Positions 11,392 to 48,099 of a stretch of DNA of 64,000 nt are shown here, one piece after another. The notes below the pieces were generated by a model. It worked only from the letters and a program-made list of their open reading frames with translations, was not told where the DNA came from and did no database searches. This DNA comes from Lytechinus variegatus (Eukaryota), in assembly GCF_018143015.1 (NCBI RefSeq), contig NC_054742.1, positions 58,220,853 to 58,284,852 of the forward strand, in the 5' to 3' direction. The position numbers were made by a program, and so were the translations under genes. Position 1 is the stretch's first letter; every line of letters starts with the position of its first letter.

Positions 11392-11523
11392 CGGGTACTA
11401 CTGGGAAAGAATTCCTCAATAAGCTGTGAGCACTGAGATCAGTATCCTAGCTTAGCTAGGTGGATATGTTTGCAATATGAATAACTTGTGTAATTGTTAT
11501 TATCATTATTACTATGTATCTAG

Positions 11524-11622
11524 GCCAAAAAGTCTGGTAGTAGCGCAGACACACAGGGAGCAGAGAGAATACTGATGGCAAACAAACCCTTGGTCAATTG
11601 TAGTCTCATCATTATTAGACTG
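11524..11622 (+). CDS. ULK4: ULK4-like exon. Peptide: AKKSGSSADTQGAERILMANKPLVNCSLIIIRL
   Basis: Acceptor gtatctag, donor ctg|gtaagt. 99 nt, phase 0 at both ends. Matches ULK4 AQKSGSGEDPQAAEDLLLLNRPLTDLISLLIPLL. Confidence 0.75.
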
Positions 11623-11759
11623 GTAAGTGTCAAAGAAAGTTAACAAAGAAGGCAAAGGCCTTTTAAAACAGATAAATCTTGCAGAGTAAACTACTTCCTG
11701 AGTAGTAAAGTAGCCTTTGTAGACCAAATGGCAATTCATTAAGTACACAGAGACATCAA

Positions 11760-11945
11760 ATCTTATGTGATATCCACTATACAATAGCTGAATATTGTTA
11801 TTATTATCATTATTATTGTAATAATGATTATTATTATTATTATTATTATTATTATCATTATTGTTATTATTATCATTATTCTCATTTTAATTATTATTAT
11901 TAATAATAATATTATTATTGTTATGATTACTATTGTTTATCATTA
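11760..11945 (+). repeat. (ATT)n/(TTA)n microsatellite in a ULK4 intron.
   Basis: Seen directly. Confidence 0.85.
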
Positions 11946-11975
11946 AATCTATTTAAAAACATGTCTCTTCCTCAG

Positions 11976-12158
11976 CTTTGTCACAAGGATAAAGAGATCC
12001 ATACGACAGCCTGTGAGTGTCTCTCCCTGATTGGTCAGCTGTATGGTGGGGAATACCCTGCGTCGTTCTCCGCCGATAACTCACAAGCCATGGCTAGAGC
12101 CCTCCAGGCCTTCGATACCAAGAGACAAAAGCTGATCCTCAGATACATCAAGAGAGTG
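11976..12158 (+). CDS. ULK4: ULK4-like exon. Peptide: LCHKDKEIHTTACECLSLIGQLYGGEYPASFSADNSQAMARALQAFDTKRQKLILRYIKRV
   Basis: Acceptor ttcctcag, donor gtg|gtaagt. 183 nt. Matches ULK4 ...SSKCLSILVQLYGGENPDSLSPEN...KEQKLLLRILRRM. Confidence 0.75.
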
Positions 12159-12465
12159 GTAAGTATGACAGGCAGTGATTTTCACTGCCTGTTGTTATAA
12201 GCTACTGAAATCCTTGCATCCGACTGGCTCAGAGTAGATTGTCAGTGAGAATCAATTACTATTTTTTTTCATGAAACACTCCCCTGATCTCTGTGATATG
12301 GTTGACAAGGATGTCGATTTCTTGTGAATTTGTTTTTAATTGCGATTAAAAATATAAGTAATTTTTCTCCTCCCCCTCATACTGATGCACAATTGTACAT
12401 CTGTTTATTTTTTTTAAGCAAATGAAATCTAAATATATTGATCTGTTTTACATTTGACACGACAT

Positions 12466-12634
12466 TTGCTCCTGTGACATTTGCTCCGGTCTCATTATCT
12501 CAGAGGGAAAAGGTGTAGATTTAGGATTGTAATAAAAAAGTTTTTGGTTCATAATAATGTTGGGTTGGGTTTTATGTTCGGCTTAACGTGCAGATTTTCT
12601 ATCGGAGCAACTGTCGCCAGAGCAAATGTCATGG
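12466..12634 (-). mobile_element. MITE family 2 copy in inverted orientation. TIR TTTGCTCCGG...CCAGAGCAAA.
   Basis: Reverse-complement match to the 11201-11391 copy. The two copies bracket ULK4 exons 15 and 16. Confidence 0.55.
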
Positions 12635-12868
12635 AACTGCTTCATAGGGATGAGGGTTGTTATCCTAATTTTTAGAGTAGTGGGTCCTGAAATGATACTT
12701 AGCAGGTTAACAGACAAAAAAATGAAATGATTCTATAAAATGTAAAAAAAAAACTTTTCCACAATAGGAGCCAATTCAACAATTTCCTGTGTCAAATATT
12801 TCAATTTTGATAGCTGGTGACAATAATTATAAATCAATCTGTAATGGTATATCTTCTTCCATTTGTAG

Positions 12869-13024
12869 GTAGCAACTGAGACACACCACATAGAGCATCT
12901 TAACACAGAGGGCACCGTTTTGATAGAAGCATTGGTGCGTATGAGGCAGACGGCAAGCTCACATGCTGATGTAGCAGTGTCTTCTCTTGCAGCTGATATC
13001 CTGAGGGTTGTGGGTGTCCAATAA
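12869..13024 (+). CDS. ULK4: ULK4-like terminal coding exon. Peptide: VATETHHIEHLNTEGTVLIEALVRMRQTASSHADVAVSSLAADILRVVGVQ*
   Basis: Acceptor atttgtag. TAA stop at 13022-13024. Matches the ULK4 C-terminus ...LRALERLAPGSGSFADSAVAPLALEILQAVGR. AATAAA overlaps the stop. Confidence 0.75.
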   Translation, partial: VATETHHIEHLNTEGTVLIEALVRMRQTASSHADVAVSSLAADILRVVGVQ

Positions 13025-13025
13025 A
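13020..13025 (+). promoter_or_regulatory. Candidate polyadenylation signal AATAAA at the ULK4 stop. Other AATAAA hexamers lie at 13146-13151 and 13448-13453.
   Basis: Hexamer seen directly downstream of the stop codon. The actual cleavage site is unknown. Confidence 0.3.
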
Positions 13026-13400
13026 GGCACGATTACTGAGGCTGCTGTTTTAATAGGTGGCATTAGGAGACGGACACCATGCTGATGTAGTGTTTTCTTC
13101 TCTTGCAGCAGATATCATGATTGTTGTTGGTGTACTATCAGAGAATAAACACTTAAGGCACTGCTTTGATAGAGGCATTAGTTCGTATGAAACAGACATC
13201 AAGCTCGCATTCTGATGTAGCAGTCTCCTATCTTGCAGCAGATATCCTGAGGGTTGTGGTTGTCCAGTAAAAGCATGAACACTGAAGGTGTTGTTTTGAT
13301 AGAAGCGTTAGTTTCTATTGGTCAGACGACAAGCTCACATGCTGATGCAAAGGTCTCTTTCAGGGGTTGGGGACACCCAAGTCACAATATAATGGGAGTG
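13025..13400 (+). repeat. Tandem array of about 120-125 bp units derived from the ULK4 last coding exon (3 further partial copies), in the 3' UTR.
   Basis: ..HADVVFSSLAADIMIVVGV.., ..LVRMKQTSSSHSDVAVSYLAADILRVVVVQ*, ..VSIGQTTSSHADAKVS.. These are degenerate copies of exon 17 (12893-13024). Confidence 0.7.
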
Positions 13401-22129: not shown

Positions 22130-22330
22130 ATGAATTGTCCACTAGAAGATGAAACTCCTGACCTGCCATCAATGGTCTACATTCACTTGGACTCCCACAC
22201 AGGATAAACCCACTTGGTCTACTATCAATCTGGTCTAATTGTCGTTTGGTCTACACTCCTCTAGATCTTGGTCTAAAACACACTTTGCCTAATTCTTATT
22301 TATTCTAATGACCAGATGGTCCTATTTTCA
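22130..22330 (+). repeat. Related TGGTCTA(A/C) minisatellite in the 3' flank of the zinc-finger gene.
   Basis: Seen directly. Confidence 0.45.
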
Positions 22331-22605
22331 ATTTGTATACTAATTATTTTCTTTACTTTGTAAAATGAAAATTTCATTCATTAACAGTTCACCTGACCAT
22401 ATTGACTAAATGGTGTTACCAAATGGATGTTAGATGAAATGGGGAAGGAATAACTAGAAATTAAACAATATAGTTAACGGGTGACATGGCAATTACATCA
22501 AATGGTCAGTAGACAATTGGAGATAAAGTAGGATTTAGACCTTGCGGTTTGAGACCTAACGGAAGGTACACAAAGCGGGTGTAGACCAAGTGGCTCTTCA
22601 TCCCA

Positions 22606-22887
22606 TTAATCATCAAACGAGATTCCACCAATACTAAGATGCATCTTCTCATGTTTCTTCAAGATCCACTTTTCACTCAGCGGTTTATCACACACGCTGC
22701 AGACGTAGGGTTTGTAGCCGGTGTGGGTGCGTTCGTGCCGCTTCTTGTTACTGCTGCTGTAGAAACGTTTATTGCAATATTGACACATGTAGGGTTTTTC
22801 TCCTGTGTGAACACGCTCGTGCTTCTTCAGCTGGTTCGCTACCTTGAATGCCTTGTCACACATGGAGCACGGGAATGGGAACTCTCC
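22606..22887 (-). CDS. Terminal exon of the same zinc-finger gene: three further TGEKP-linked C2H2 fingers, then the stop. Peptide: (G)EFPFPCSMCDKAFKVANQLKKHERVHTGEKPYMCQYCNKRFYSSSNKKRHERTHTGYKPYVCSVCDKPLSEKWILKKHEKMHLSIGGISFDD*
   Basis: Minus-strand acceptor ttttacag (plus 22888-22895). Phase-1 continuity with the upstream donor gives the canonical HTG-E.P linker. Matches ORF track 22606..22863. TAA stop at 22606-22608 on the plus strand. A minus-strand AATAAA lies about 300 nt downstream. Confidence 0.8.
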   Translation of the reverse strand, partial: GEFPFPCSMCDKAFKVANQLKKHERVHTGEKPYMCQYCNKRFYSSSNKKRHERTHTGYKPYVCSVCDKPLSEKWILKKHEKMHLSIGGISFDD

Positions 22888-23566
22888 TGTAAAAGGATAT
22901 CAAGAAACAGGCCCAGGGTTATCACCACCACTTTAATCTACATTTGCCGTATCATTATTACCACAATGACCTACATTTTCAGATATCCATTTTATTTCTA
23001 CACATTAATTCTTTTAAAAAGGATCTTTTGTTTGGAAAATTTATTGATCATTTTAATAATACTTTTCAATATTATTTCAAAATGTGCATTTTTATTATGC
23101 AATGCAAAGAAAAAAAGGAAACTGTTTTTTTGGAGAAAAATATCACAAACATTGAACATGTTTTGACTATGAATTTGACACTAATATTAAATGACTTCCT
23201 TCTTTGATTTGAGATTAAATAAATCATAATTCAATAAACAATAAATACTGAGGCCTGTCAAAAGCATATTGGTTTTGAGATTGAAATTCCAAACTCTTGC
23301 TTATATCATAGAAGCTCTTGCTCATATCATGACAATTAGGATAAGATCTTTTGTAGTCCTGTCATGTAATTTTTCCAAGGAAAATTTTCTCAGACCAATT
23401 TTCACATGCTTGGAAGTATACCATAAATTTTGGACACAATTTTCTTGGAATAAGTTTTGCAATTCACCAATACGACAGTTTGGATGATCGCCGATAAAAC
23501 TGGCATCTTTAGATAATCTTGAAATAAGTCTGTAGTAAATCCATTCATGTGAGATCTCAAACTTAC

Positions 23567-26500
23567 CTGTATGAATTTTCTTATGCTCCTCAAGCAGCTC
23601 CTCATGAACAAAGTCTTTCCCACATAGCTTGCAGGAGAAGAGATCTGTCTTGGGTTGTACCGGTGACTGCTTATTTTTGGAAGGTCCACCTGTAGAAGCA
23701 GAGGCTGTTTTGGGCTTGGCTTCACTTTTGATTTCAACTTTGACCTTTTGCAAGGGAGTTTTCACAGGACCTTTGGCATGGACGGAATTTGAATTTGCCT
23801 TCATCTCTGCTCCCCCTTCAGATTCCTTTGGGCGCACTGCAGATTTTTCTTTCTTGGTATCCTCAGTAATGGTCAGTTTTCTAATTTTTCCAGGCTGAAT
23901 GGGCTTGGCTTCCTTCAGGTCATCAGCTACGATAAAAATTTCAGTTGAACTTTTCCTTTTGACAGAGCTTGGAACTGGATCCTTATGGGATTTATAGTGA
24001 CGCACTATGTCTGCTTTCCTCTTGTATGATTTGTCACAGACTAGGCAAATAAACATCCCAGACTTTACATGAGACAATTCATGTAGCTTGACCAGTTCTT
24101 CGTTTTGGAATGATTGTCGGCAAATGGAACACATTTTTGGCTGATTAGCATGGGTAGATTTGAAGTGGGCTTGCATATCTTGTTCAGTTTCAAACTCTAA
24201 AATACAGGATGAACACTTGACTTTATTCATAGTAGGGGCAAAGGTTATTGCAAGCTTCTTAAACTTAGTAGGCAATGGCTTTCTCTTGGCTTTACTGCTT
24301 TCATCAGGTGTAGGTTCGGGAGGAGCTTGCTTTGCTCTCTTCGCTTCCAAGCAGTGTTTACAAGAGCACTTCCCGGACCGACATGTCTTTGAAAATATCC
24401 TCTTTTTAGCTTTTCTGGCTTCAGAAACAGGAGATGATTGATTTTCTTCAGACTCCAGGGCTCTCACCTCTGCCTCATCAAAGTTATCTTGACTTTGCAA
24501 GTGATGGTCTGAGGCATCTCCCATTTGGCCTTCAGCTCCATTCTCTTCTGGAACGTGGTCCATCTCCGGAGCCATTACTTTTTCTTCAACAACTACCTGA
24601 ACCTCTTCATTAATGGCTTTCTCTCCATCATCCACACAGCTGGACACACCAGTTTGGTCAACAGTCAGAGGCACTTTCAAGATTTCTCCTTCTGGAGTCG
24701 TGACTGGAATTGCCACCACACCTTCCCCGATAGTTTCGGACATCTTTAATATCTCCTGCAATATCATATTGGCTGTTTCTTCGTCGGCTGGCTGAGCAGT
24801 CACTGCAAGTTGCGCAATGCTTTGCTGTGGATCCTTTGTTTGAATAGTCAAGGATTGTGACGGTGTATCAATTTTATTTTCATTCTCCAGCTTCTGTGAG
24901 GAAACATCTGCACTTCCCCTACTAGTGTTGTCAGCTGCTTCGACATTTACATCAGAGGGTACCAATTCAGGTGCAGATTCTTTCACTCTGAAATCATTGA
25001 CATCCTTGCACATCTCTGAATCATCCAATACAATGATATCATTGTCTTCTGCAGATCCCTCATCTATCATCAGTTTACCATCCTCTTGATCTGACAATGC
25101 ATCATCATCATCATGAACCCTTTCCACTTTTGAATCAGCTTGCTTGGTTGCATGAGTTATATCATCAAATTCTTTGGAAGGTATAACTTCTATTCTCTCT
25201 TGTGGTGCATTGTCAGGTTCACTTACATTCAGAGAATTGGCATTATCTACTTGATTGGTATCACCACCATCTGGAGTATCTTTGTCATCTTGCATTTCTT
25301 GTGAGGTTGCCAGGGTCAAGATGGGTGCATCAATCTCTGCCAGATTTTCACCTTCAAGGACCGGAACCTCTCCTGCAGAAAGAGAACGTTCTAATACAGG
25401 TATTTCCATGTCCTCTTCATCAATCTTCTCAACCAGTTGATCACTAATCTTGCCAATGACTTTCGACACCTCTTCCATTTCTTTCCGAACAGTCTGAACT
25501 CTTTCTTCAATGGGTACAGTATCATCTTCCCTCTCAAGCTTCTCCAAACTGTCTGATTCTCTGCTCATCTGATCAACTTTCTGTCCTTCCTGTGTTTCAT
25601 TGGGGGTCGAGTCAATTCCCGCATCTTCAGAATCCATGCTTGTTTCAGGCTGTGAATCCTTGAGTTGTAGAACTTCGCCGCTGGATAGTTGCCTTTCATC
25701 ACTTTGTTGTATTGATGCTTCTCTAACTCTTTCTTTCTGGTCAGTTACTCCATCTGGCATTATCACAGAATCATCATCTCCAACTTGAACGCTTTCAACA
25801 CTTTCAGTATCCTTTGCAGGAAGGACTTCTTCATCTACATTTTCGCTTGCTGTACTTTTACCATCTTCAAAGGTGCTTTCAGATCTTTCTGGTAAGCTTT
25901 CCAACACACTTTCTGCTGCAATGGTGTCTTTGTGGTCTGTGTAAATATCTGAAAGAACTGTTGACTCAATGGCATTGCTGTCTTGATTTTTATCCACTGA
26001 TAAATCCTGGATAGGCTCCTCATCATTATTCATGGATGACACCTCCTTGTACTCTAATACACCTGTAACCATTTCAGAAGAGTCCTGATCTTTTGATATT
26101 TCTGATTCTTTCTCTCTTGAACACTCCACATGTCTCTGTTCTTCAAAACTTGCCTGTTCCACTACACGGCTACTGGCATCAGAACTGGTTGATTCCACCC
26201 TTGATTCTTCATTTGATTCTTGGATTTCCTGTTCACCATCAATTTCCATAGCCTCATCAACATCTATGGTCTCATCACTTTGCTTAAGATTTAAATCCGA
26301 CAGTCCAACATCTTGACATATGTTTCCAAGTTCTCGACTGGACCCTTCCTGCAACTCATCAGGGACAGAAGTCACATCAACTGCTGTCAAATCAGCAGCA
26401 ATAGGAATTGACTGCCCAGCTCCATCCTCTTCAATACTATGCATATTTTTGGTCTCAAGATCACTTGCTTCAACATATGAGTCAATGTTTGATGGCTCTA

Positions 26501-29500
26501 AATGAACTTTATTACCACTACCGATTTCTTCACCAGAGACATCCTTTGTCATGTCAGCTCTATCATTATTTTCCTGTGAAGCAAACTCAGTTGCAGCATC
26601 AGATATCTCCAGATTTTTATCAACATCACAAATCGCCTCTTTTCCTTCCATATTAGTAGTGTCAGCAGTGATGTCTCCAGGTTCGAAACTCACCGACTGA
26701 TGAGTTGATAGTTCTTCATTTAATGATTTCTTGGACATTATCGTGGATATTTCAATATCTTCTGACCTTCGAAGGACCACCTCTTCTTCTTTGGAATGTG
26801 GGGTAACAACATCTTCTATGACAGATATTTCCATTTCCATGCCCCTTGATGAAGCAACTGAAGTATCATCCCCAGAACCATCCATCTTGACAGATAAAAC
26901 AGCAGAATCCATAGGTGTAGTTCCCATCAATGCATTTTCACTTCCTACAGACTCAGACACATCAGTGTTCTCCTCTTTCTCAGATATTACTTCAGTGTCT
27001 TTACTGGGATCCAGTATTTCAGCAGAGGACGTACATGAAGGCTCCTTGTTCACAATTTCTTCTGGAGTATCACTCACTGGCTCTTGCTCAGCCATACATT
27101 TATCATCATTGTCTGTCACATAAGATACCCCAGTTGTGATTGTCTCTCTTGCATGACTTAATTCTTCGATCTCTTTACTAGGATCCAGGACTTCTGCAAA
27201 AATCAATGAATGTGAAGACTTGCTTTCCTCGGTTTTCTCTGGAATGTTACTGACAGACTCAGAGACACCTGCAGTACTAGTCTCTACTACCTCGGTTATT
27301 ACTTCAGGGTCTTTACTGCAATCAGATTCTCCTGCAGGTGTATATGATGGCTCTTTGTCCACAACTTCCTCTGGAATATCACTGACTGGCTGAATTCCTG
27401 TACTGCATTCATTTTCATTGTCTGTCACATCAGAAACTTCTGTAGTATTTATCTCATCTGCCTCAACTACATCTCTGATCTCTTTACTGGGATCCAGTGT
27501 TTCTGCAAACAATGTATGTGAAGCCTCATCGTCCTCAATTTGCTCTGGAATGTTACGGTCAAACTCAATCTCAGTGCTGCACCCATTTTCATTGTCTGTC
27601 ACATCAAACACCCCTATTGTCTTTGTCTCTGCTACCTCATTTATTTCTTTGGCGTTGCTACTGGGATCGAGTGCCTCTAAAGACAATGTGCATGAAGGCT
27701 TGTTGTCCACAAGTCCCTCTGGAATATGACTGACAGACTCTATTCCACTGCTACATGTGTTGCTGTTGTCTGCAGCATCAGATTCAGTCGAACATGTGGT
27801 ATGTTCCTCTGCTTTCTCAGTAGATTCTTCAATGTCTTTAACATGATCACACCCTTCTGCAGAGAATGTCAATAAGTGATCCTTATTCCCTGCAATATCA
27901 CTAACTAGCTCAATCTCTGACACACCTGTGGACTTTGCCTCTGCTACATCATTTATTTCATCAATGTCTTTACCCAAAGAGTCTTCTGCAGAAGAAACCT
28001 CCATGTCCTCTGGAATATCACTGACGGACTTCATCTCGGCACTAGATTTACTTTCATTGTCAGCAGCATCAGAAGCCTCTATGTCGTCACACACATCAAC
28101 AACCATGGGAATCTCCTCATTCTCTTCTTCCAGCTGTGAGTCATCTTTCTGGTGTGATTCTAATTCATCAGGATGCACTTCAACACAGATGGTTTCCTGC
28201 AAATGTCCAGAAGGTAATTCACCTCTCTTTTCATCAATAGTTTTTGAAGACTTGCATTCAGTGTCATTAAGAGTGGTTTTTGATTCTCCTTCAAAGTCAC
28301 TTTTTGATATTTCTTCAGATGATTCAAATGCAGCTTCTTTACTCGCCCGACTAGGGTCAAACGTATGACTGTCATCTTGTGATGGATGCATGACACTCGC
28401 ATCTGTTCTACTCTCTTCATAGCTGCTTTCTGAAATTTCTCTAGATGATGATTCTACTATAGCTTCTGTACTAGACTGACTTGGGTCATTAATATGACTA
28501 TCATTTCTTGGTGCATGCATCAATCTTGCATATGTTGTGCTCTCTTGACTAATTACCTGTTGACATGCACTGGTTTCATTTTTACTTGATACTTGAGCCT
28601 CTTCACTGAAAGTCAGTGTATGATACCCAGCTGCTGAGACAGTCTTATCTGTTTCATCATTCTCTAATACAATGTTCTCTTGAATACTTTCACTCGATAC
28701 AGGAGTATCAAGGTTTCTCACCTGCTCTATATCATGGACAATGTCTGTCTCTGAAGATATTTCTATGCTAACCGGATTATCTTCAGAAATACTGCCAACT
28801 GTGACCCCAGAATTTCCAGCCACTGGACCTGAATCTGATCTGCCTTTAACCTCCTCTTGTGATAAACTTATATTTTTGCCCAGATCACATTTAACATCAC
28901 CTGACAGTTCACCTTTGTTCAGAATGATTTCTGGAGTCATTTGTTCATCATCATTGTCAACATCTCCCACAGCAGTTTGGATACCATGGGATTCTGTTAA
29001 TTGCTCTCCTTGCACGTCACTGCTTTCTGCATTTGAATTTTTACTATCAGGCACATGACTAGTATGATCACTGTATTCTGCAGTATCACCATCACATGTT
29101 TCAACAGCCATCTTTTCCTTCTGGTCCAAAGAAACAGGTAATTCAATTCTATTCTCATCTTCTGTATAACCAGAACCAACCTTATCAGCAACATGTTCAC
29201 CAGCTAATCTGTTCCCGTCTTCAACAAGACGTTGCTCATTATCTTCTAAATGTTCAAGTTGCATACTAGTTGATGCATTATTTTCATGCATCTTTTTGAC
29301 ATTGCATGTATTCGATGGTTTCGCCTCTTCTGCCAAACTGTCACTATCATGAGCACTTTGATCCACTATTGTTCTATCGTCTGAATCACATGTATCCTGA
29401 TCACGTAGCAAATCTATTTGTCCTGAAGACATTGCCAGTGGCTTGACTGCAGGGTTTATTGGTGTCTGCTGTACTTGCTCATTTTCATCAAAACTTTCAG

Positions 29501-31713
29501 GTACGTCTTTCAGTGGGTCTGTACCTGAAGACTGGCATTCTTCAATCAATTCTTTCTGCAAAGGCTGCTCGATTTCTGAAGCCAATCCAGACTCAGCAGT
29601 TGTTGTATCACAAGAATAGGTTTTGGCTTCTGCACTGCTTGGCTCAAGTAATGCAATATCTTTATCTTTTACATCACTAGCTTGTGAGTCTGGCGTTATT
29701 GTACAATGTGTGGTTGGAACTGGGTGGACATGCTCTTCCATCTCCTTATCCTTAGCTTGATCTTTTTCACCTTGTTCTTGCTCTTCCTTTGATGCCAAGC
29801 TTGTTCCAGAACATGAACTTGCTTCCATGACTGAGGCATTTGCGATGTTTTCTTGAGACAATAACTGACTTTCAGATTCGTCATCATCCCTTTGATCAGG
29901 TTGATCAATTTCCATTTCTGAAACTTGATCTGTTAATCCCATTTCATCATAACTTATCAAAACATCACTTGTTACTTCTCCACCTGATTCTATAGATGGT
30001 TTTTGATAGACTGCATTAGTGACAACACCTTCATCCTGTAAAATTTCTTCAGGGGTTTTTGCTTGATTCCTCAAGCCTTTCCTCTTCCATATCAGGACCG
30101 CATTCTTGAGACTCTACTGCATCTGAAGATGTTACACTGGAAAGATGATGGGATGCATGTGCTTCAGAATCTTTGCCCAACATTTCAGAAACTAAGCCTG
30201 GGACTACACTTGGGTCTATTGTGTCTACGGATGTTTGGCTGCTGGAGATGTGAAGTGCACTTTCTGTTACATCCATTGGCTCTTCAGATAAAACCATTGG
30301 TTCTATGAATTGTGTTAACTGCTGACCTGGACCATTCGCTGAAGACTGGTTTGGTTGAATCACATCTGTAGAAAGTTCCATAGCCATTTGCCCTCTGTCA
30401 TCATCTACCACGTGAATGCTATCCCGTGGTGTTGCTTCATTTATCTGATTAGTGTCGATGCTTATATCCATTGGAGTACCTTCATACATATTAGACCCAC
30501 GTTCTTCTTGTGTGGAAGTACTTGTCACAAAATCAGAAGACTCATTTCCCAAAACATTTCTTGTTTTATTTAAAACGTTAGTATCCACTGGTGATATCTG
30601 AGCGAGGTCTGTATGATCTGAACCTTGCTGATAAACCTCTTGAACTGTAGAAGTTATGGTATCCTCACCTTGCTTTTTAGTCATAGCAATTTCTGTTTCT
30701 GTTGAGGGCATATCACTAACAAATGCATTTTCACCTGTTGTCATAGGGTCAACTGGCATTGAAGGAACAGCTTCATCATTGGTAATGTCAACGGCTGATG
30801 TATTCACCAACGTATTATCTTCATGAAGTGACTCTGCATGTGAAGGGATATTATGGTCTCCACTGAATGTACTAACAAATTTACTTGAACATGATTCCTG
30901 AGATGGGGAAGCAGATGGTTTAGCTGATTCTTCTCCATCTTCTCCAGTCTCACTTGCACCAATTACCTGGACAACTCCTGGGCTTCCTCTGCAGAGTGCG
31001 TTGTCACCCTGCTCAGCACTTGTACCAGTCTGATCAACGGATTGCATAATCAGTTCCTTGCTGAGTTGTGAGTCAATCTGCACAATACCTTCAGTTTGAT
31101 TACATTCTCCTGCAGAATCCCTGCTATCCTGGACTGATATTTCAGATTTCTGATCATCTGTTGATGAAGAAATAGGGTTTTTATGGACTTCTTGCAATAA
31201 TACCACTACTTCATCCGTGGAGACAGTAGTGCCTGAAGCGGCAAGTTCAGTTAAAGTTTCACCTGGATCTAACGTCTCTGCATCTTCGTGTGTGATCTCT
31301 TGTACTTTAGTAGACATTGTTGGAGTATTCCCCTCTGGATGAGTTTCACTATCAACCACTTCAGATGTAACAGCAGCTGTTGAAGCACCAGAGATCACTC
31401 CCACTGGTTCCAAAGAGGAATGATCTTCCAAATCCACTGGAATCTCTATCCCTACTTTGTTCACTCCATCAACATTACCTTCAGGGTTAACTGGCACATT
31501 CTGATTGGTAAGATCTTCCATGCTTCCTTGAGCTGCATGAATGTCGTCCGGATCCCCAATACACGTGTCCTTGGTACCTCCCGATAGACCAGGATGAACG
31601 GTGGTTTCACACTGATCATTTTTATTTGCAGTGTCTGATTTATTCTCCTCCTCCTCCTCCGTTGTACCTTGTACAGTCAGGTTAAACTGCCCAACTTCAT
31701 TTTCCTGCTCCAT
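23567..31713 (-). CDS. Giant single coding exon of a C2H2 zinc-finger protein (about 2800 aa). The N-terminal roughly 2400 aa are extremely acidic, S/D/E/T-rich and look disordered. Three dispersed C2H2 fingers and the first finger of a terminal tandem set lie at the C-terminal end. An apparent +1 frameshift sits at about 30049-30074.
   Basis: Two long minus-strand ORFs, 30049..31713 (554 aa) and 23322..30074 (2250 aa), overlap by 26 nt in adjacent frames. The C-terminal part carries C-x2-C...H-x3-H motifs (KMCSICRQSF..HELSH, FICLVCDKSY..RHYKSH, FSCKLCGKDF..HKKIHTG). A donor acag|gtaagt follows the HTG codon (plus-strand 23561-23566 is acttac). Confidence 0.75.
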
Positions 31714-32944
31714 TGTCGTTGACTGATAGTTCCTTCACTTGGGTTTATTTCATGAGGGCACTCTGATATGACTTCAGCACTTTTGAAGGACAGCCAAACT
31801 TTTGAAGACAAGAAAAACCATGTGGTATGCTCGGTGTGTAATCTGTTGAAGGGAAACAGAAATACAGAGGCTGACATGAGAAACATGACCATTGATGCTG
31901 CAAGCAAAAGAAAGACATTATTTCTCAGCTAAAATTAAAGAAACAAGAGTGTCGCTGGGGGAGCACATAATATGCCCACCTGTAACATGGAAAATTGAGT
32001 TTTTGGTAAAGCAAGAAGGTGACAACTTGACCTTTTGACCTTAAAATCAATAGGCTTCCTGGGATCCATGCTAGTATCAAACACACCAAATTATATAAGC
32101 CTAAGGTTAAGTTAGACTGAAGTTATCGCGTTTAAAAGGACTTCAGAAGGGGAAGATGATATCATGTCCCTGTGACCTTGACCTTTGACATTTTGACCTC
32201 AAAATCGATAGGCTTCCTGAGATCCATGCTACATGCAGTATCATACACACAAATGAGCCTTAATTAAGTTAAACTGAAGTTATCGCATTCACAAGGATAA
32301 TTTAACAGACGGACGGACACCGAGCGTGATACCATATGTCCCGTCTAGGACGGTGTATAAAAATGACATATAAGGTTTCAAACAAACAGGCATCATTTTA
32401 AGATTAATGTGTACATGTACCTGTGAAATAGATTAAGTCAGTAACCCAAATCACAAAGGTTCATTTTGAATCCGCTTCAAAAAATAATTTATGCAAATTT
32501 AATGCATTAATTCAGTGCATATATTTCAAAAGCATCCGATAATGAATGCATGCTTTGCCACAATACGCTAAATTCATGCCCGTCACTACTATTACTGCAC
32601 TAATAAAACCAAATGTTAAAAGAAAATGAAACTCAATATCTAATATCACATAATATCATTGATAAATACAAAATAAGAAAAATGAATCCACTTATACCCC
32701 AATCCGATTTCCCAGTATGGGGTAATGATAATAGCAGGGCTTGCTGGGAGAACAGTTTTCGGAACTGAAGTGGCTACCCTGGGTAAATATGCCATTATTA
32801 TTATCAGTTTTATTATTACCTCTTTGAAGTTGGGATTCTTCAGGCTCAAAGTTTTTGGATGTAGATCGCCATTTATGCGGGGTTAGTTCAAATCTGTGTC
32901 ATCAGCAACAAACTACACCTCTAGGTTAAGTAGATATGTACATT

Positions 32945-33305
32945 TGCCTATTATAGCTTCTATTTTACCAATAATAAATCGAATATACACATAAAAATTT
33001 AGAAGAAATGTGTCTTATATTAAATTATAGTTTCAAAATACAATTTGATGAATTTTAATGATAAATTTTACACCCTTATCTACGATTTCCAAATTTGCAT
33101 ATTAGTTAATTAGCTCGTGATTAATTCTTGCTAGCTAATTTGCAAATTTGGAAATCGTTGATATGGGTGTAAGATTTATTATAAAAACTCATAAAATTGT
33201 ATTTGGAACTATAATATAATACACACATTTCTAACAATATTTTTATGAGTTTTATGTGTATATTTGATTTATTATTGGTTACATAGAATCTATAATGCGC
33301 AAATG
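32945..33305. repeat. About 360 bp near-perfect palindrome (foldback) centred near 33125.
   Basis: The left arm 32945-33125 is the reverse complement of the right arm 33125-33305 at about 85-90 percent identity. The central core is ccaaatttgcatattagttaattagc / gctagctaatttgcaaatttgg. Confidence 0.65.
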
Positions 33306-33337
33306 TAGATATCTACGTAAAGATGTAGTTACCAAGG

Positions 33338-33351
33338 GCGCATGCGCGAAT
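33338..33351. promoter_or_regulatory. Palindromic GCGCATGCGCG (NRF1-type site) in a small CpG-rich patch (33330-33440). Candidate promoter.
   Basis: Motif seen. CpG density is locally higher than the surroundings. It lies about 1.6 kb upstream of the zinc-finger gene ATG on its 5' side. Confidence 0.3.
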
Positions 33352-34196
33352 TTGGCAGAGTCTAATAATTTTGCTTGAAAATATGTTTTTTTTGCGCACG
33401 CGCCATCTGTACATCGATCAGCCAGTTTTGTTTGCAATTTTGAAAGCGAGTGAACGAACACGGTCTTGCCTTTTATTCCCCTCTTTCAGAGTCTGGCTAC
33501 TGCCTCGATGTCAGGATTATGCTGCCCATCAGACCTTCATCAATATCATGAGAATTGAGGTGGGTGAATGATTTTTTTTCTTTAATCTTGGGTGTTTTGG
33601 TACCCCAACCTCAAATCGAAGGTACTCATGCATGTTAGTATTTGTTACCTGTGGCAGCCTATGCTATGCTATGGTTACCTTCTTGGCTCTCTGACTCTGG
33701 GTTAGAATATCTTCCGTTCAAAATCAAATTCGATCTGACAATGTCAATGTGATTTCTGACATTCTCATTCTGCATGTTCTGATTACCAGTTTATTACCAC
33801 CCAAAAAAAGAAGAAAAATACTTAATATTCACTTGGTCTGGCAGATTTAATGGCGCCTGGGCATTATGACTAACAAATTTGGAGTGAAAATATATATATA
33901 GAAGCAGTACGACAATTTGAACAAACGTAACAACATTTTCATAATTGCAAAGGTAACATTACAAAAATAACAAGGCGTGGGGCCATCATGTAAAATTATA
34001 ATGCAAAATATGCTGCGTTTCGATGGAAAATTGTGTGATAATCCTCAATCATACCTTACCCATCATCCCTCAATCTGTCACACAACAATGTTATTATTTA
34101 CAAGCAGATAAATGACTACAAATTCTGAACAGTTTACCTCGAAAATCAGCAATAATTCTATTCCTCGGATCGGGATCACATCAACAGGGAAATATT

Positions 34197-34225
34197 ACGC
34201 ATGCGCAGAATGACCCAAGCGGAAG
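34197..34225. promoter_or_regulatory. ACGCATGCGCAG (NRF1-like), then 9 bp later CCAAGCGGAAGTA (ETS/GABP-like). This is a classic housekeeping-promoter pairing.
   Basis: Motifs seen. No nearby exon was identified. Confidence 0.25.
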
Positions 34226-34952
34226 TATTATTATACTATAGTACTACAGGATATTTTTTCTTTCCAGGCCCTTTCTTTCTGTACATGTGTTCTCAATGTT
34301 CTTAACAAATATGCAACCAAATGAATTTGTCAAAAAATATATTGAATAATGGTAAATATGATAATATGATAATATTTGCTTATTTTTTGCATCCAAGTGT
34401 GAGCCCAAAAGGGGCCCAATCCCTAATCCGGCCAATATACCTATCATGGTTATAACACGTCTACTTATGAATTTCATGTTTTGGAATTTAAGAATATGCC
34501 ATAAAATTAGCAAAACTGGGGAGATCAGTATTAAATATAACTGTTTTCCCCGCTGGGGTTTAAAAACAAAACACGCAAATAAAAGAAAGAGAAATAGGGG
34601 GAGAGAGGGGGAGGGGCCCCGGGGAGCTAGAAAGTGGATACCATGCGCGACCAAAAAAAAAACACGTAAAAGGGATGGGTTATTTTTCAAAATTGGGCAC
34701 GTTACGTAAGTAAAGTAATAAGGGTGTCAAAAACACTAAAATAATATAAAAAAAAGGTATCTATTTCGCTAGGACGTGTTTATAGGGTCAAATTTGCGAG
34801 GGTATAAAAAAATTAAGACTAAAATGGTAAGAATGTACCTTTCATTTCATATGGCACCCTTATTCCTGATGATCCTATATGTTTGTTTTCAATCTCATCT
34901 CACTTTAACTAGTGAGAAAATGATTTTTCATTGAACAAAGCACGACTGTTTA

Positions 34953-40882: not shown

Positions 40883-40987
40883 ATGAACTATTATAAATTT
40901 ACTATGTTTACTGATGTGACATACAGGTGTGACGAACCAGTCATTGTACCTGTGCAAGAGCAGCTGGTCAAAGCAGCCGTTCTTCAA
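40883..40987 (+). CDS. Candidate first coding exon of an uncharacterised gene. Peptide: MNYYKFTMFTDVTYRCDEPVIVPVQEQLVKAAVLQ
   Basis: ATG at 40883, with an alternative at 40904. The ORF stays open to the donor caa|gtaagg, with phase 0 out. That phase matches the next exon. Confidence 0.4.
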
Positions 40988-42221
40988 GTAAGGATGATAT
41001 TAATTTTTATAAGTAGCTACGTATACGTCGCCATGGTGCTGGGGCGGTGTAATTGGGGACGGGGGGGGGGCAACCCCTCACTTTTTAACCTACAAAATGT
41101 TAAACAAATACCATCTTATTGCGTTTAGGGAACTTCCCCCTAGCCCTTTCCCCCTCCACGTTTGACCCAGCCCCAGCTGTAATATATACATTAAATCGAA
41201 TGCAATATATGACGAAACCAAAGACAGAGCTTTATTTTTCTCTATGAGTGGCCCTCTTGCGAAGCAAACAAAACTGAAACAAATTGGAATGACAATATTT
41301 GATTTTATATTTTATCTGGTTCTAAGTATGTATTGTTAGTGAATATCCAAAGTTCACTGAGTGTCCTATCAATAGTCATCAAACTTCTGGAAAAGATGCA
41401 GTTGCGAAATTTTGTGGATTTTTAAGGGGCCAGTTCCCCAAACACCCCCGTCTGTAGGCCGGTATTCTGAATTGTCTCTATATGGTCTGTAATAAACGGG
41501 ACCCCCCCCCCCCATCAAACATTGGATAGTTTTGGTCTCTTTCTCAAGGAGGGCCAATTTCTTGCTTTTTAAGACTGTAACCTCTGGAATATCGCTGGGG
41601 TAGAACCAATAGTCTTTATCTGGTCATAATAAATGCATAGCCTTTTTGATAATGTAAATTGAAAAAAAAAACACTACCTCTCCAATATACTTGGGCATCA
41701 TTCTGCACAGTACGTCAGTGTAGGGTCTGTTTTAATCCGAAAAAACACTGATTTCTGTGTTATCTATTATTTCCCAGTTTGACGACGAATGCTGACGACC
41801 TCATAATCATTTATGATTGAAATGGTCGTCACATAGATCGGCGGTCATGGCCTACTATTTATGACGAGTATCTGACTTCATTTAATTTTTATGCTTAAAA
41901 GAACAGGTAGTCTTTAAAGAACATTATTATAATAATTTCAAATAATTCGTGATATTTCAATGCATATGCATGATCTAATAGTCTTACAAAAAACAATAAC
42001 AATATTGGATTAAATTACTTTCCAGTTTGAATTATAACTGGGCTTTAGGCCTAAAAATAAATAAAAAGAAATTTATTTTTTTTTTCAAAATTCTGACCCA
42101 GACAATTTTAATCTTATGACAGTTTTGTCCTACGTGTATATTCACAGACATAATAACGATGACCTTTTGTTAGTAAGGGTGTTATCGTGTGTTTTTATTT
42201 CGATTTCTTTATAATGTGCAG

Positions 42222-42401
42222 GACACACATGCTGCCGCCCCTGAAAATAATCGGTTATTTTCAGTAGAGATCCTAAGAAACATAATCTCATCTGACAAAT
42301 TAACATCATCAGGTGATCAGGTGGACGGAAATGAGTCTTCCAGAGGAAAAGACTTTCCTTTCAAAGTGGTGACCCATCTGACGTCAAAAGGGTCAGCGAC
42401 G
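42222..42401 (+). CDS. Exon of the uncharacterised gene. Peptide: DTHAAAPENNRLFSVEILRNIISSDKLTSSGDQVDGNESSRGKDFPFKVVTHLTSKGSAT
   Basis: Acceptor ataatgtgcag, donor acg|gtaatt, phase 0 at both ends. Lies inside ORF track 42189..42479. Ordinary amino-acid composition. Confidence 0.45.
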
Positions 42402-43329
42402 GTAATTAAATTTTCAGTTCCTGTCCCAGTTACAATTTATTTATCCATAAAATTGATACAGTATTTGACAAGCAAATAACATCCGGTATACATTAACACT
42501 TGACAGATTTATCAATTAGAATATTTTTATATTTTCATTTCATTTATTTTCATATTTCGTTTTTTTTTTACATTTGTTTCATACAAAATAAGGCAACAAC
42601 AAACATGCATACAACGAAATTACATACAAATGAAAATGTACAAGTAACGTGATACAATCAGTCAAGTATTAAAAATACCTTGATCTAAGTCAATGAAATA
42701 TAATGGGACCTATAAAGGCAAGTTTGTAGAATTGCGGGCCCCGATGAAATATATTTGTAAGTAATGGAAGCCGGTTCAATTTTTATGACCTTATACACAA
42801 TAACGTGACACTGTTTTCAATACAATATTATCTGCTAAGATACACTGTTAAAAAAACCCCTGATTTTACAGAAAAAACAAGATTTTGCAGAAAGCAATAA
42901 CAGAATAATTCTGTATATTCATTAATCATGAATTTTTCTACAATTTAGCAGAACAGGGACCCGTTGCATAAAAAGTTGCAATCAATCGCAACTCCAAAAA
43001 TCATGCGCAACTTGATTTTCAACCAATCAGCAGCGCGTATTTTGATCTCGAAGGGGAAAATGGTGTTTTATTTAAGGAAATTTGTAAGGTTCCATACACC
43101 AAATACCAATTTCCTGTAATTGAACATGATACAATGTAAGATTAGGCAATCTGGTAAGATTACAGGTGTTCTCAGGCGCGTACGCAGGATTTTTGAAAGG
43201 GGGGGGGGGGGGGCTTTCGAGCATATTTTTTTTTTAAATCTCCCGCCCAGTCTCTAAAAAGTGATGAGCGGGGGGGAGGTGATGATTTTTTTTATATTTT
43301 TTTTTCAGCGCTGCAAATAAGACAATAAC

Positions 43330-43500
43330 ATTTAAGTGGGGATGGGTATGTAACAGTGCGGTCATGACCCGCGAGCGAGCAGAAATGTTCTCGTTTTTGC
43401 GTTGAAAACATAACCTTTTTGTCAATAGTTTGTTGGTATCATAGTCGATGCTACATGTCCTTCGGATCGTAGCACTCATGATATGGCCAACCGCGTAGCC
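43330..43500 (+). repeat. Single unit of the about 180 bp satellite (GAGCGAGC...GAAATGTT.TCG.GTTTTT.CGTTGAAAACATA...).
   Basis: Aligns to the units at 44990-45640. Confidence 0.5.
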
Positions 43501-43859
43501 AGGATTTCATTTTGGAGGGGGCGGTAAATGCACGCGAAGCGTGCGAACACTTACAGAGCGCGCGAAGCGTGCTCCCTAGGGGGTGGGTGCAGGGAGGGGG
43601 AGTTTCCCCCTCCCGCGCGAAGCGCGAAGCTTTTAGTGTTTCATAAATTAAAATGAAAAGGAGCCGTTTCTCTTGTCTCTAGTACCTCCAATTCGGTTGA
43701 CTATATTGCGATTTTGAACCTTGTTTTCAAAAGTGATTGTAAACGCGCACAAAAGAGGTATACAATGGAGGAAATTAAAATGATAATAACTCCGCGCGAA
43801 GCGCGGAAGCTAAAGTGATTTATCAATTTTTCTTGCCATAAAAAGGGTCCCGAGAAAAG

Positions 43860-44300
43860 GGTATTCTCAAAGATATATTGAAACTTTCTTTGGAAAGATC
43901 AGATTTGATTACAAACAATTTAGCATCAGTGCATATTTTTAACTCGCAAAACAGAGGAGAAGATTGGTAGAGGAAGATATTCCTCCCCGCGATGAGCAAT
44001 GAAACTCTGAAATTTCAAAGGGCGGACGTTTCATCAAATGTAGATATCTCTAATACCCAATCGTCTCTAATTCAATTGATTTTCTAAGATTATTGAACTT
44101 CATTACAAGGAAAATAGTGCGCATAAATATGAAACTTCTGTGATTTATTGAAATTATCTATCTATATAATAAAGGATGATTATTTTTTTTGACTTATCCT
44201 GAAGCGCTTCATTTTGAATATAAAGAAACTTAAGTGTCATTCAAAATTTCAAATTGAGGGCGCAAAACAGGACAGGAGATGAATGTATACAGGGAAATGA
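43860..44300 (-). repeat. About 430 bp repeat, copy B. Inverted relative to copy A, 7.4 kb away.
   Basis: See copy A. Confidence 0.6.
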
Positions 44301-44879
44301 CATGAAGTTTAATACAATTTGATAAAAAAATATTGCACTTTTTTATTTAATACGACACGAATTCCATACCTTCCTCTTTTTAAATTAGGAACCTGTTTGC
44401 CCCCAAATTATGGTTGTTTATAGTAATGAGCTGAAAAGCGGGAGAAGCTGACTTTATGGAGGTGACGGCAGAAACTGATATAAAGATTTTACCCGCTCGG
44501 AGCAGACCAGACCAGAAGTTGCGCGATCAATTGAAAAAAAAAGATAACTTCATACATTTACTTCGGCCTAACCTTACTCAAATTCATGCCCTAATGTATA
44601 CAATTTTAACTTTAACTGGCAAGAAGCACATAGCTGAGGTGGAAAAACAGGGTTAGAGAAAAGGTGGGGGAACAATGGAGAACTTCAATATTGTCATTTA
44701 ACCGCGCGCAGCGCGGAAGCAAAATTCATATATGAATTTAAAGCAAGAATAGTGAAGGAGTTTCTCTTTTGAGAAAAAAATAAAGAATAAATAGAAAAAA
44801 CACAAAGCTACCTTTCTTCCCTTTCCTTCCTTCCCTTTTCCTTTTCTCCTCTCCTTTTTTCCCTTTTTTTTCTTTTTGG

Positions 44880-44947
44880 GGACGTTTTGGGCCATATCCA
44901 GGCGCGTAGCCGGGGGGGGGGGCGGTTGCCCCCCCTGGCTACGCGCC
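44880..44947. repeat. 68-bp perfect hairpin: GGCCATATCCAGGCGCGTAGCC-G10 / C7-GGCTACGCGCCTGGATATGGCC.
   Basis: Exact reverse-complement arms around a G/C homopolymer centre. The same CCAGGCGCGTA(C/G)C motif next to G-tracts recurs at 43178-43230, 43485-43510 and 45765-45800. Confidence 0.7.
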
Positions 44948-44989
44948 TGGATATGGCCTTGATCAGAACACTAGAAACTTGAGAAATGT

Positions 44990-45640
44990 CATGAATAATT
45001 ACGAGCGAGCGGAGCAAGCGAGCCGAAATGTTTGCGTTTTTCCGTCAAAACATACAATTCTTCTCAATAGCTTGTTGGTAATGATTACATATTAGTTGAT
45101 GATACATGTCCTTCTGCTCGTAAGTCTCATGATATGGCCTTGATCAAGAGACTAGAAACTTAAGAAATTTCATAAATTATTACGAGCGAGCGGAGTGAGC
45201 GAGCCGAAATTTTCGCGTTTTCCCGTCAAAACATACATTTCTTGTCAATAGTTTGTTAGTAAATCAAGTATTAGTCGATGCTACATGTCCTTCTATTCGT
45301 AACACTCATAATACGGCCTTGAACAGGAGACTAGATACTTATGGAATTTCATAAATTATTACGAGCGAGCGGAGCGAGCTAACCGACATTTTAGCGTTTT
45401 CCGTCATTTTGGTTTTCATATTGGTAAAACATATTTTGTAAGAAAACGTATGTCTTTGTCTTGGTTCACTTGTATTCATAAGTATACATCATGATAATCA
45501 TGTATGGCCTTGTTAATGGCGATACCGTGATCATGTCGGCGACATGCGGAAATAAAAGATATAATAAAATGGAGCGAGCGAAGCGAGCGGAATTTTTTTC
45601 TGTGTTTTTCGTCGGAAACATGAGATTCTGTTCATTATTG
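44990..45640 (+). repeat. About 180 bp satellite, at least 4 tandem units (ACGAGCGAGCGGAGCGAGCGAGCCGAAATnTTnGCGTTTTnCCGTCAAAACATACA...CATGATATGGCCTTGA...).
   Basis: Units visible at about 44990, 45170, 45350 and 45570 (partial). Confidence 0.65.
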
Positions 45641-45869
45641 TCTTACTGTCCGTAACCAGACCAAGGAGTTATCAGGCTCTTGCCCGATAACTCCTTGACC
45701 AGACCGACCTCTGGGGAGACAAGCAAAAAAAAAAAAAAAAAAAAACGAAAAGGGGGGGGGGTTAAACCCCCGAAACCCCCCCTTGCGTACGCGCCTGGGT
45801 GTTCTCGCGACTCTGCTGCAGGTGTAGACACCCAAGGAAAACCAAAAAAGTTATAAACAAGTTCTATTA

Positions 45870-46474
45870 AAGGACAAGTCCACCCCAACAAAAACTTGAT
45901 TTGAATAAAAAGAGAAAAATTCAACAAGCAGAACATTGAAAATTTCATCAAAATCGGATGTAAAATAAAAAGTTATGACATTTTAAAGTTTCGCTTCATT
46001 TCATAAAACAGTGATATGCACATTTCGGTCGGTATGCAAATGAGGGAACTGATGACATCACTCACTCACTGTTTCTTTTGTATTTTATTATATGAAATAT
46101 GAAATATTTTGATTTTCTTGTCATTGTCATGTGAAATGAAGTTTCATTCCTCCCTGAACACGTGGAATTCCATTATTTTAACATGTTGTGCTTCAGGCAA
46201 GGAGGTCCTAATCATCAAATTCGTAAAAATTGAAATATTGTATAATTCAAACAATAAAAAAACAAAAGAAATAGTGAGTGAATGACGTCATCAGCTCTCT
46301 CATTTGGATGTAACTGGCTCGTTCATATAACTATTTTTGTTGAAAATAAGCGAAACTTTGAAATGTCATAACTTTCTTATTTTACATCCGATTTTGATGA
46401 AATTTTCAGCATTGTGCCTGTCTGATTTTTCTCTATTGATTCAAATCAACATTTTTCTGAGGTGGATTGACCTT
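45870..46474. mobile_element. Foldback MITE copy 2. Same family, TA TSD.
   Basis: More than 90 percent identical to copy 1 over the arms. Flanked by tatTA|AAGG ... CCTT|TAaac. Confidence 0.75.
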
Positions 46475-46992
46475 TAAACACAATCATGTTCCCTTTTTGG
46501 CCACTAACGACAGGTTCCACTACAGACGGGTGCTACATCTTTGTTCTATGTTACTATGTCGTTTATCTGTACATGTGAACGAATCCTTCAATTTCTTCAA
46601 TTTCTTCAATGCCTTCGGTGGATCCCCTCATTTGATCTATTGTTTCACACCCCCACAATATGACGTCACGGACTTCCACCAATGCATATGATTGATTGAT
46701 TGCTGCATGTTTGCTTGCTTGATTGATTGATAGATTTTATTTCTCACGATGAAAACAATACAAAATACATACATTCAAATAATAAAAACATAGTAATTGA
46801 ATTAATAATATAGAACAGATATAAACTTACGAGAAAAAACAGGGTAAAACAAAAAAAAAATCTACAAGGAACTTGAATATCCCAGTTGCAAAATACGACT
46901 GTGGAATACATAAACATAAAATAAAATTTGATGTATATTTGTGATAGAAATGAAATAAACGTCTTAAAGATTTGAATCTTAATTTTGTGTAG

Positions 46993-48060: not shown

Positions 48061-48099
48061 GTACGTATTAAGGCCACCGCACACGTTACAACATGTCTA

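Follow-up and report, generated by a model that had tools for sequence, protein, structure and literature searches.

Two groups of described proteins are the natural points of reference for the gene described here. The first is the poly-C2H2 zinc-finger arrays (e.g., ZNF568, the designed protein Aart, PRDM9, CTCF and Zif268), with which the gene shares C-x2-C-x12-H-x3-H fingers, TGEKP-like linkers and a predicted beta-beta-alpha fold. The second is a set of acidic proteins, both zinc-finger factors with acidic regions, such as ZFX/ZFY and Drosophila Su(Hw), and polyacidic histone-binding proteins, such as nucleoplasmin, nucleolin, prothymosin-alpha and the acidic segment of DAXX. On the minus strand, the gene occupies positions 22606 to 31713 of a 64,000-nucleotide (nt) stretch of the Lytechinus variegatus genome (assembly GCF_018143015.1, contig NC_054742.1, positions 58,220,853 to 58,284,852 of the forward strand), hereafter the window. 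Very probably the gene is real, a C2H2 gene restricted to sea urchins whose product has a disordered polyanionic arm, and its frameshift is either an artefact or a recently arisen allele. That the arm would work through a specific bulk-polyanion mechanism is a tentative proposal, and one that we would not bet on by itself; the gene and the mechanism combined are the explanation towards which we lean, with modest confidence.

The coding region consists of one large exon, running from an ATG at 31713 to a splice donor at 23567, and a short last exon. An in-frame stop lies a few codons 5' of the ATG, and the start MEQENEV is common to the gene here and in Lytechinus pictus, with MEQANEV in Strongylocentrotus purpuratus. 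Frame 0 has no stop between 31734 and 30052 (554 codons from the ATG) before the TGA at 30051-30049, while a long frame, shifted by one base, runs open for 2,263 codons between 30113 and 23325. Candidate acceptors for a 5' untranslated exon lie at ~31843 and ~31899. The 8,147 nt of the interval 23567-31713 and those of the last exon do not add up to a multiple of three; with one C removed, the coding sequence becomes 8,427 nt and 2,808 amino acids (aa) in two coding exons. The long segment contains 2,182 codons with 0 stops, when ~151 would be expected from base composition, so the long open frame is not a product of chance (probability ~1e-68); the remaining five frames have 60-298 stops each. 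At the exon ends, the donor reads cat aca g/GTAAGT, with the exon ending at 23567, and an acceptor ...ttttacAG ends at 22887. The phase-1 intron between them is shared, in position and phase, with L. pictus, S. purpuratus and the ENA contig L003, and the protein encoded by the last exon is 100% identical to that of L. pictus. A 2.2-kb contig, L004 (run SRR6173504), is contiguous across the intron junction and carries a 3' untranslated region, and it looks like a spliced cDNA of an ortholog. The initial annotation had reported a coding exon of ~8.1 kb and ~2800 codons: the very long minus-strand coding region stands, but in the sequence as given it is broken by a 1-nt frameshift near 30055. The last exon, which had been taken to begin at 22887, begins at 22886, one base after the acceptor AG.

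Orthologs can be recognized in three other sea urchins. The L. pictus ortholog LOC129257463 (XP_054751763, 2,772-2,773 aa) aligns with 5,160 bits, 89% identity and 100% coverage, and S. purpuratus LOC590715 (XP_795405; also XP_030856152, named 'futsch-like', 2,653 aa) with 1,959 bits and an identity that rises from ~45-50% over the arm to 75-93% at the C terminus; in both cases collinearity is full-length. The third is XP_072174271 of Diadema setosum, with 2,543 aa. The orthologs resemble the window copy in their start, the phase-1 intron in the HTG/E linker, their neighbors, the C-terminal tail GISFDD and the size and charge of the arm. They differ in that the 1-nt frameshift belongs to the window copy, the number of fingers varies and a set of 58-aa repeats is expanded in Lytechinus. 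The S. purpuratus gene is flanked by a ULK4-like kinase gene and by a PARP4-like gene with VIT/VWA/PARP domains. The window shows the same arrangement and a single copy of the zinc-finger gene. Membership in the orthogroup of S. purpuratus LOC590715 is thus indicated by collinearity, gene neighborhood and intron position, together with a signature block described below. On these sequence comparisons, it is a genuine single-copy protein-coding gene, orthologous to LOC129257463, LOC590715 and XP_072174271. The initial annotation could not place the gene in any named family from sequence alone; Pfam indeed names no family beyond C2H2, but the gene is an ortholog of these predicted ones. The orthogroup is therefore already predicted by annotation pipelines in three sea urchins and is unstudied; it is not a new kind of system. 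Literature searches on the ortholog identifiers, SRR6173504 and 'futsch-like' in sea urchin found no paper, and a general search on C2H2 in sea urchin found nothing specific to the gene.

How widely the family is distributed was assessed by an HMMER search of all 1.84 billion representative proteins with a profile built on the conserved block outside the fingers (aa 2290-2521). Only four matches were returned: the L. pictus representative, D. setosum XP_072174271 and two further fragments of the same architecture. The signature within this block consists of the helix EETANxILQEILKMSE, the cysteine motif KTCRxGxCSCKxC and the element KRKPxP..FKKLxIxFxPT; all are present in the window and retrieve orthogroup members only. 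No match to the block was found in the proteins of sea stars, sea cucumbers, brittle stars or crinoids represented in the searched collection; proteins of these groups are in the collection, since they appear as generic finger matches. As far as these data go, the family is restricted to sea urchins, in agreement with the earlier suggestion of a lineage-specific factor. Searches seeded with the fingers (the four-finger C terminus and a C-terminal profile) returned generic poly-zinc-finger proteins and one ortholog, P0008, and were uninformative for orthology.

The C-terminal part of the protein can be described in some detail. Seven C2H2 fingers are present in a 3+4 arrangement, at aa 2500, 2528 and 2556 and at aa 2694, 2722, 2750 and 2778, each fitting the motif C-x2-4-C-x12-H-x3-5-H. 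Fingers 4 to 7 (F4-F7) are joined by TGEKP-type linkers (HTGEFPFPC, HTGEKPYMC and HTGYKPYVC), the first of which contains the intron, while the linkers of the first cluster are non-canonical (THANQPKMC and SHVKSGMFIC). Across the 2,808 aa, Pfam reports zf-C2H2 and zf-H2C2_2 above threshold and nothing else: the last exon scores 56.4 bits for PF00096 (cut-off 25.2) and 68.6 bits for PF13465 (cut-off 40), and the large exon 27.1 bits for PF00096. The C-terminal 499 residues were modeled with AlphaFold2 using five orthologs in the alignment, which gave seven beta-beta-alpha (E-E-H) units with a block-mean predicted local distance difference test score (pLDDT) of 74-87 for the fingers. Motif, Pfam score, predicted fold and linkers all place the protein in the C2H2 family. 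Elsewhere in this model, confidence is moderate around KTCRxGxCSCKxC, and disorder is predicted outside the fingers, that stretch and a conserved amphipathic helix. The helix is kept in 4/5 aligned orthologs, including Diadema, and fragment P0008 begins within it. The T-C-R-x-G-x-C-S-C-x2-C motif is invariant in 5/5 orthologs, and the basic four-cysteine patch that contains it is a candidate nuclear localization signal and small zinc knuckle. A conserved island, KRKPxPxKFKKLAITFAPT, precedes the first finger, and a further one reads HHLQSQDNFDEAEV; when the conserved non-finger blocks were searched with Pfam at E-values up to 10, nothing meaningful was found. The element DIIVLDDSE is the sole one in the protein that we take to resemble a SUMO-interaction motif. 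A basic linker of 117 residues connects clusters 1 and 2. S. purpuratus has a second three-finger module (largely intact, with a degenerate first finger), which two further orthologs have intact and which is missing from Diadema; in Lytechinus a relic of it lies in the linker between the clusters.

The rest of the protein is an acidic arm. In aa 1-2400, D+E+S+T make up 43.7% of residues, D+E 23.7% and K+R 6.3%, for a net charge of -418, while the C-terminal 408 residues have a net charge of +29. Over the whole protein, aromatics amount to ~2%. By the charge-hydropathy boundary, a heuristic measure, all 200-aa blocks are classed as disordered, and an AlphaFold2 model of aa 560-1700 built with three orthologs has a mean pLDDT of 32.4, with 1,134/1,141 residues below 50 and no helices or strands. 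The arm, ~2,300 residues long, is thus predicted by both approaches to be an intrinsically disordered polyanion with a net charge of about -400. The 58-aa repeats lie within it and are expanded in Lytechinus relative to S. purpuratus, with weak self-similarity at the DNA level. Tandem Repeats Finder detected no DNA tandem array in the gene, and aligning the protein with itself by BLASTP gave no repeat pairs, so that these repeats are visible by motif spacing only. Casein-kinase-2-type sites (S/T-x-x-D/E) are not enriched in the arm, with 112 observed and 114 +/- 8 expected. Much of this architecture had been anticipated by the initial annotation: the richness of the N terminus in D, E, S and T, its probable disorder, and seven fingers of which four are TGEKP-linked in an array split by the last intron are all borne out by the measurements above. 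Its statement that the N terminus has 'almost no hydrophobic core' was too strong, given that aliphatic and aromatic residues make up 22.5% of residues, although AlphaFold2 still finds no structure there.

The two parts of the protein have evolved in different ways. The ratio of nonsynonymous to synonymous substitution rates (dN/dS), estimated by Nei-Gojobori, is 0.82 for aa 1-2200 relative to L. pictus (Fisher p = 0.12) and 0.59 relative to S. purpuratus (p = 3e-17). The corresponding values are 0.11 and 0.22 for aa 2201-2499 and 0.31 and 0.19 for aa 2500-2808, which hold the fingers. The C-terminal 500-600 residues are therefore the constrained part, and they hold two short conserved helices besides the four-cysteine patch and the fingers. 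No BLASTP-detectable similarity links the arm to that of Diadema or of the ENA ortholog; the arms of these two are nevertheless similar in size, with 20-27% D+E, 0.4-2% aromatics and a net charge of -270 to -440. Per residue, the arm has a net charge of -0.17 in the window, -0.17 in L. pictus and -0.16 in S. purpuratus. The sequence of the arm drifts almost neutrally, while its frame, length and charge density are preserved across sea urchins; the split between Diadema and Lytechinus is of the order of 200 million years. A separate observation concerns synonymous sites: the exon has a dS of ~0.065 relative to L. pictus, below the divergence of the flanking intron and intergenic DNA (window 22283-34842), a difference that could stem from gaps in the BLAST identities or from synonymous sites being constrained.

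A possible mechanism can be outlined from this architecture. The finger module and the basic patch would bring the protein to the nucleus, where fingers 5-7, perhaps together with finger 3, could tether it to specific sites on DNA or another nucleic acid. Fingers 5-7 are given this role because their contact residues (V/N/Q/K in F5, S/S/N/R in F6 and E/W/I/K in F7) are typical of DNA-binding fingers and those of F6 and F7 are invariant; sequence-specific DNA binding is thus a property we infer for the fingers. The arm would then work by bulk electrostatics: it could bind basic chromatin proteins, histones for example, or compete for them, or alternatively serve as an 'acid-blob' effector or spacer rather than a folded domain, with the few conserved islands as possible docking motifs. 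Several points weigh against the gene and mechanism as proposed. The function, including the role as a chromatin or transcription factor that the initial annotation had suggested, is read from architecture alone, and transcription from a single cDNA-like contig (L004) of a relative. An aromatic-poor acidic arm is atypical of strong acidic activation domains. The AlphaFold2 alignments are shallow, with 3-5 sequences. Residues at the usual base-contact positions are acidic or hydrophobic in F1 (T/Q/D/A), F2 (N/E/L/L) and F4 (H/E/L/E), so that perhaps only three or four fingers would read DNA, and weaker Pfam matches to the double-stranded RNA-binding family zf-C2H2_jaz (E = 1e-5 to 1e-8) overlap the C2H2 matches. 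Finally, the assembly as given encodes a truncated product of 554 aa, no protein of the same species was retrieved from the collection, and an exact look-up of the 554-aa product gave no match.

Alternatively, the protein could be a conventional sequence-specific activator; the whole arm would then be one very long acidic activation domain for the recruitment of co-activators, and not a bulk polyanion acting on basic chromatin proteins. A canonical TGEKP-type finger array adjoining an acidic disordered N terminus is what this would predict, and it is the classical architecture of ZFX/ZFY-type factors. However, aromatics are only ~2%, no recognizable short activation motifs are conserved across sea urchins, and what the arm has kept since the divergence from Diadema is its length and charge, not motifs. 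A region of 2,300 residues with a charge of -400 is also well beyond the needs of known activation domains, and we regard a conventional activator as unlikely, though deserving of some weight.

The frameshift raises the question of whether the gene is intact. The switch of frame is confined to 30113-30052, where the two frames overlap, an interval that holds the homopolymer run AAAAACCCC. The large exon is 95% identical at the nucleotide level to the L. pictus locus L002, from which it differs by eight indels of 3, 6, 30, 12, 6, 6, 45 and 3 nt, all multiples of three. The sole 1-nt indel is the insertion at 30055, where a C4 run (AAAAACCCC) stands in place of the C3 run (AAAAACCC) of L. pictus. 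In S. purpuratus, the large exon is a single unbroken open reading frame (ORF), and its translated alignment to the window splits at 30052/30053. When one C is removed, the protein reads ...SKNPEEILQ..., and ...EESSKNPEEILQ... matches ...ESRENPEEIEQ... of S. purpuratus. A cryptic intron that would bypass the frameshift was also considered; many GT...AG pairs of suitable length exist, none with a convincing consensus, and such an intron was rejected on parsimony too, as it would remove codons that are aligned in the single-exon ORFs of L. pictus and S. purpuratus. If the insertion were real, the gene would be, in this species or individual, a pseudogene or null allele whose translation ends after 554 residues with no fingers, and both the TGA at 30051-30049 in the given sequence and the lack of a retrieved same-species protein fit this view. 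Against it, the insertion is the only disabling change, ~2,250 codons downstream are free of stops, all other indels are in frame, and dN/dS of the C-terminal region is 0.11-0.31 relative to L. pictus; neither multiple disabling mutations nor a gene-wide relaxation of constraint is seen. An A5C4 homopolymer is, in addition, a typical context of long-read consensus errors. In the low-coverage ENA contig L003 (7x), from another species, a frameshift at ~4012-4015, at a different site and within a repeat, likewise divides the ortholog between two overlapping ORFs, which points to this gene as a frequent site of long-read consensus errors. With no other disabling change, the other indels in frame and purifying selection on the C terminus downstream, the most likely explanation of the extra C is an error of the assembly consensus in a homopolymer, or at most a very recent (null) allele, and not the death of the gene; a pseudogene seems to us distinctly improbable. 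Care must be taken with the gene model here, as it needs a one-base correction at ~30055 and would otherwise be called a pseudogene or a 554-aa fragment.

Binding to RNA or to proteins, instead of DNA, has been weighed in the same way, and would make the gene product an RNA-associated or scaffolding factor. The zf-C2H2_jaz matches point in this direction, as do the contact positions of F1, F2 and F4, which are unlike those of DNA-reading fingers, and the separation of the two finger clusters by the basic linker. The jaz matches are, however, weaker than the generic C2H2 matches that they overlap, F5-F7 have TGEKP-type linkers, and the best solved-structure matches are the DNA-bound arrays of ZNF568, Aart, PRDM9 and CTCF. 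Contact residues of F6 and F7 are, moreover, invariant across the orthologs from Diadema to Lytechinus, and an RNA- or protein-binding role is accordingly given a low probability, a little below that of a pseudogene. Last, an origin as a repeat- or transposon-derived ORF or as a chance low-complexity frame, suggested by the internal diverged ~58-aa repeats and by the automatic name 'futsch-like' of the S. purpuratus record, which reflects low-complexity similarity, is scarcely credible for a frame that is open far beyond chance, present in one copy in the window between flanking genes conserved in S. purpuratus, matched by Pfam to C2H2-type families and to no transposon domain, and 95% identical to L. 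pictus over the exon when its flanks are 79-88% identical; the initial reading of a gene rather than a repeat-encoded ORF was sound. The preferred reading thus remains that of a real C2H2 gene with a disordered polyanionic arm. The features of the locus are collected in Table 1.

Table 1. Features of the zinc-finger gene and its neighbors in the window, listed in the direction of transcription of the gene, with the flanking genes last. Positions are those of the window.
Feature	Position	Strand	Basis or remark
Coding segment A of large exon, aa 1-554, frame 0, ends ...EESSKNP	30052..31713	-	ORF analysis
Frameshift site: homopolymer run AAAAACCCC (A5C4) with one extra C, after codon 554	30052..30060	-	
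Coding segment B, aa 554-2715 and first base of codon 2716, frame +1, ends at donor g/GTAAGT; holds the remaining acidic disordered arm, conserved motifs and fingers 1-4	23567..30051	-	ORF and splice site
Diverged ~58-aa repeats, aa ~1205-1600, unit ...TDNENxCSTxIxPVSDIPEExVDKEPSxTxSAExLDPSKE...	26913..28100	-	motif spacing
Conserved motif PIEERVQTVRKEMEEVSKVIGKISDQLVEKI, aa 2067-2097; recognizable in Diadema as PLEERAQKVRKELMDVSKIIEQVSGNLAEKI	25422..25514	-	
Conserved acidic stretch ALSDQEDGKLMIDE...EDNDIIVLDDSE, aa 2205-2233, ends DIIVLDDSE	25014..25100	-	
Conserved amphipathic helix EETANMILQEILKMSETIG, aa 2311-2329	24726..24782	-	AlphaFold2 block-mean pLDDT 86 and 64, model residues 1-20
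Basic patch with four-cysteine motif ARKAKKRIFSKTCRSGKCSCKHCLEAKRAKQ, aa 2432-2462	24327..24419	-	pLDDT 52-69, no Pfam match
Motif KRKPLPTKFKKLAITFAPT, 5' of finger cluster 1	24231-24293	-	
Finger cluster 1: F1 24150-24215, F2 24069-24131, F3 23985-24047	23985..24215	-	motif, Pfam, AlphaFold2
Relic of second three-finger module in inter-cluster linker, KIRKLTITEDTKKEKSAV...AEMKANSNSVH, aa ~2577-2693	23640-23984	-	comparison with L001
Finger 4 (CKLCGKDFVHEELLEEHKKIH), final element of large exon	23571..23633	-	motif, AlphaFold2
Phase-1 intron, 680 nt, GTAAGT...TTTTACAG, within HTG/E linker of fingers 4/5	22887..23566	-	splice sites
Last coding exon: F5 22807-22869, F6 22723-22785, F7 22639-22701, tail LSIGGISFDD, TAA 22608-22606	22606..22886	-	
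ULK4-like kinase exons, 65-90% protein identity to S. purpuratus neighbor	11478-13358	+	downstream, convergent with zinc-finger gene
PARP4-like exons	40895-48069	+	divergent from zinc-finger gene; ~9 kb common upstream space

Some further features of the locus can be mentioned. A repeat with two copies 158 nt apart (47-nt core, 91% identical) lies at 32027-32297, 300-600 nt upstream of the ATG, and the same element is found upstream of the L. pictus gene in at least 4 copies (L002 9105-9682); a tandem repeat near the promoter and a small mobile element are both possible readings. Directly downstream of the stop codon, a degenerate, stop-containing relic of the last finger exon is present in L003 (9510-9770) and L004 (1830-1990), and was looked for in the window and is absent. 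At 60709-61155 on the minus strand, a 148-aa ORF (...RLDYCNSLF...LQRLRNSAARLV...) has no Pfam match; we take it to resemble the C-terminal tail of non-LTR (long terminal repeat) retrotransposon ORF2 proteins.

The interest of the gene lies in its being a natural example of a very long disordered region whose frame, size and charge density have been kept from Diadema to Lytechinus. The sequence of the arm has diverged beyond detection, yet it is joined to a tightly conserved module of nucleic-acid-binding type. Selection on bulk properties of disordered regions thereby becomes testable in a tractable embryo system. A bolder version of the proposal would be a DNA-tethered 'giant polyanion' in sea urchins, in which the length (~2,300 residues) and the charge (~-400) of the arm, and not its sequence, would be under selection. 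This is a speculative idea to which we assign only a small chance. If it were true, the arm could take up or exchange highly basic chromatin proteins at the locus where it is anchored, for instance in the replacement of sperm-specific histones after fertilization; alternatively, it could be an electrostatic chromatin opener or spacer, a mode that is undescribed for C2H2 factors.

Compared with known poly-C2H2 arrays, the protein has no KRAB, SCAN, BTB, ZAD or SET domain that Pfam can find in its 2,808 aa, and only seven fingers, in two clusters. Matches to solved structures (E = 1e-70 to 1e-18) are confined to fingers 4-7, and the similarity to these arrays, at ~30-50% identity, is generic to the fold and is not evidence on orthology. 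The possible likeness to ZFX/ZFY, Su(Hw), nucleoplasmin, nucleolin, prothymosin-alpha and DAXX is of another kind: an acidic disordered effector on chromatin. To this can be added the DIIVLDDSE element, which presumably resembles the SUMO-interaction motifs of DAXX. None of the protein or profile searches run found sequence similarity to these acidic proteins. What sets the sea urchin protein apart from the same set is scale, its acidic region being ~5-50 times longer.

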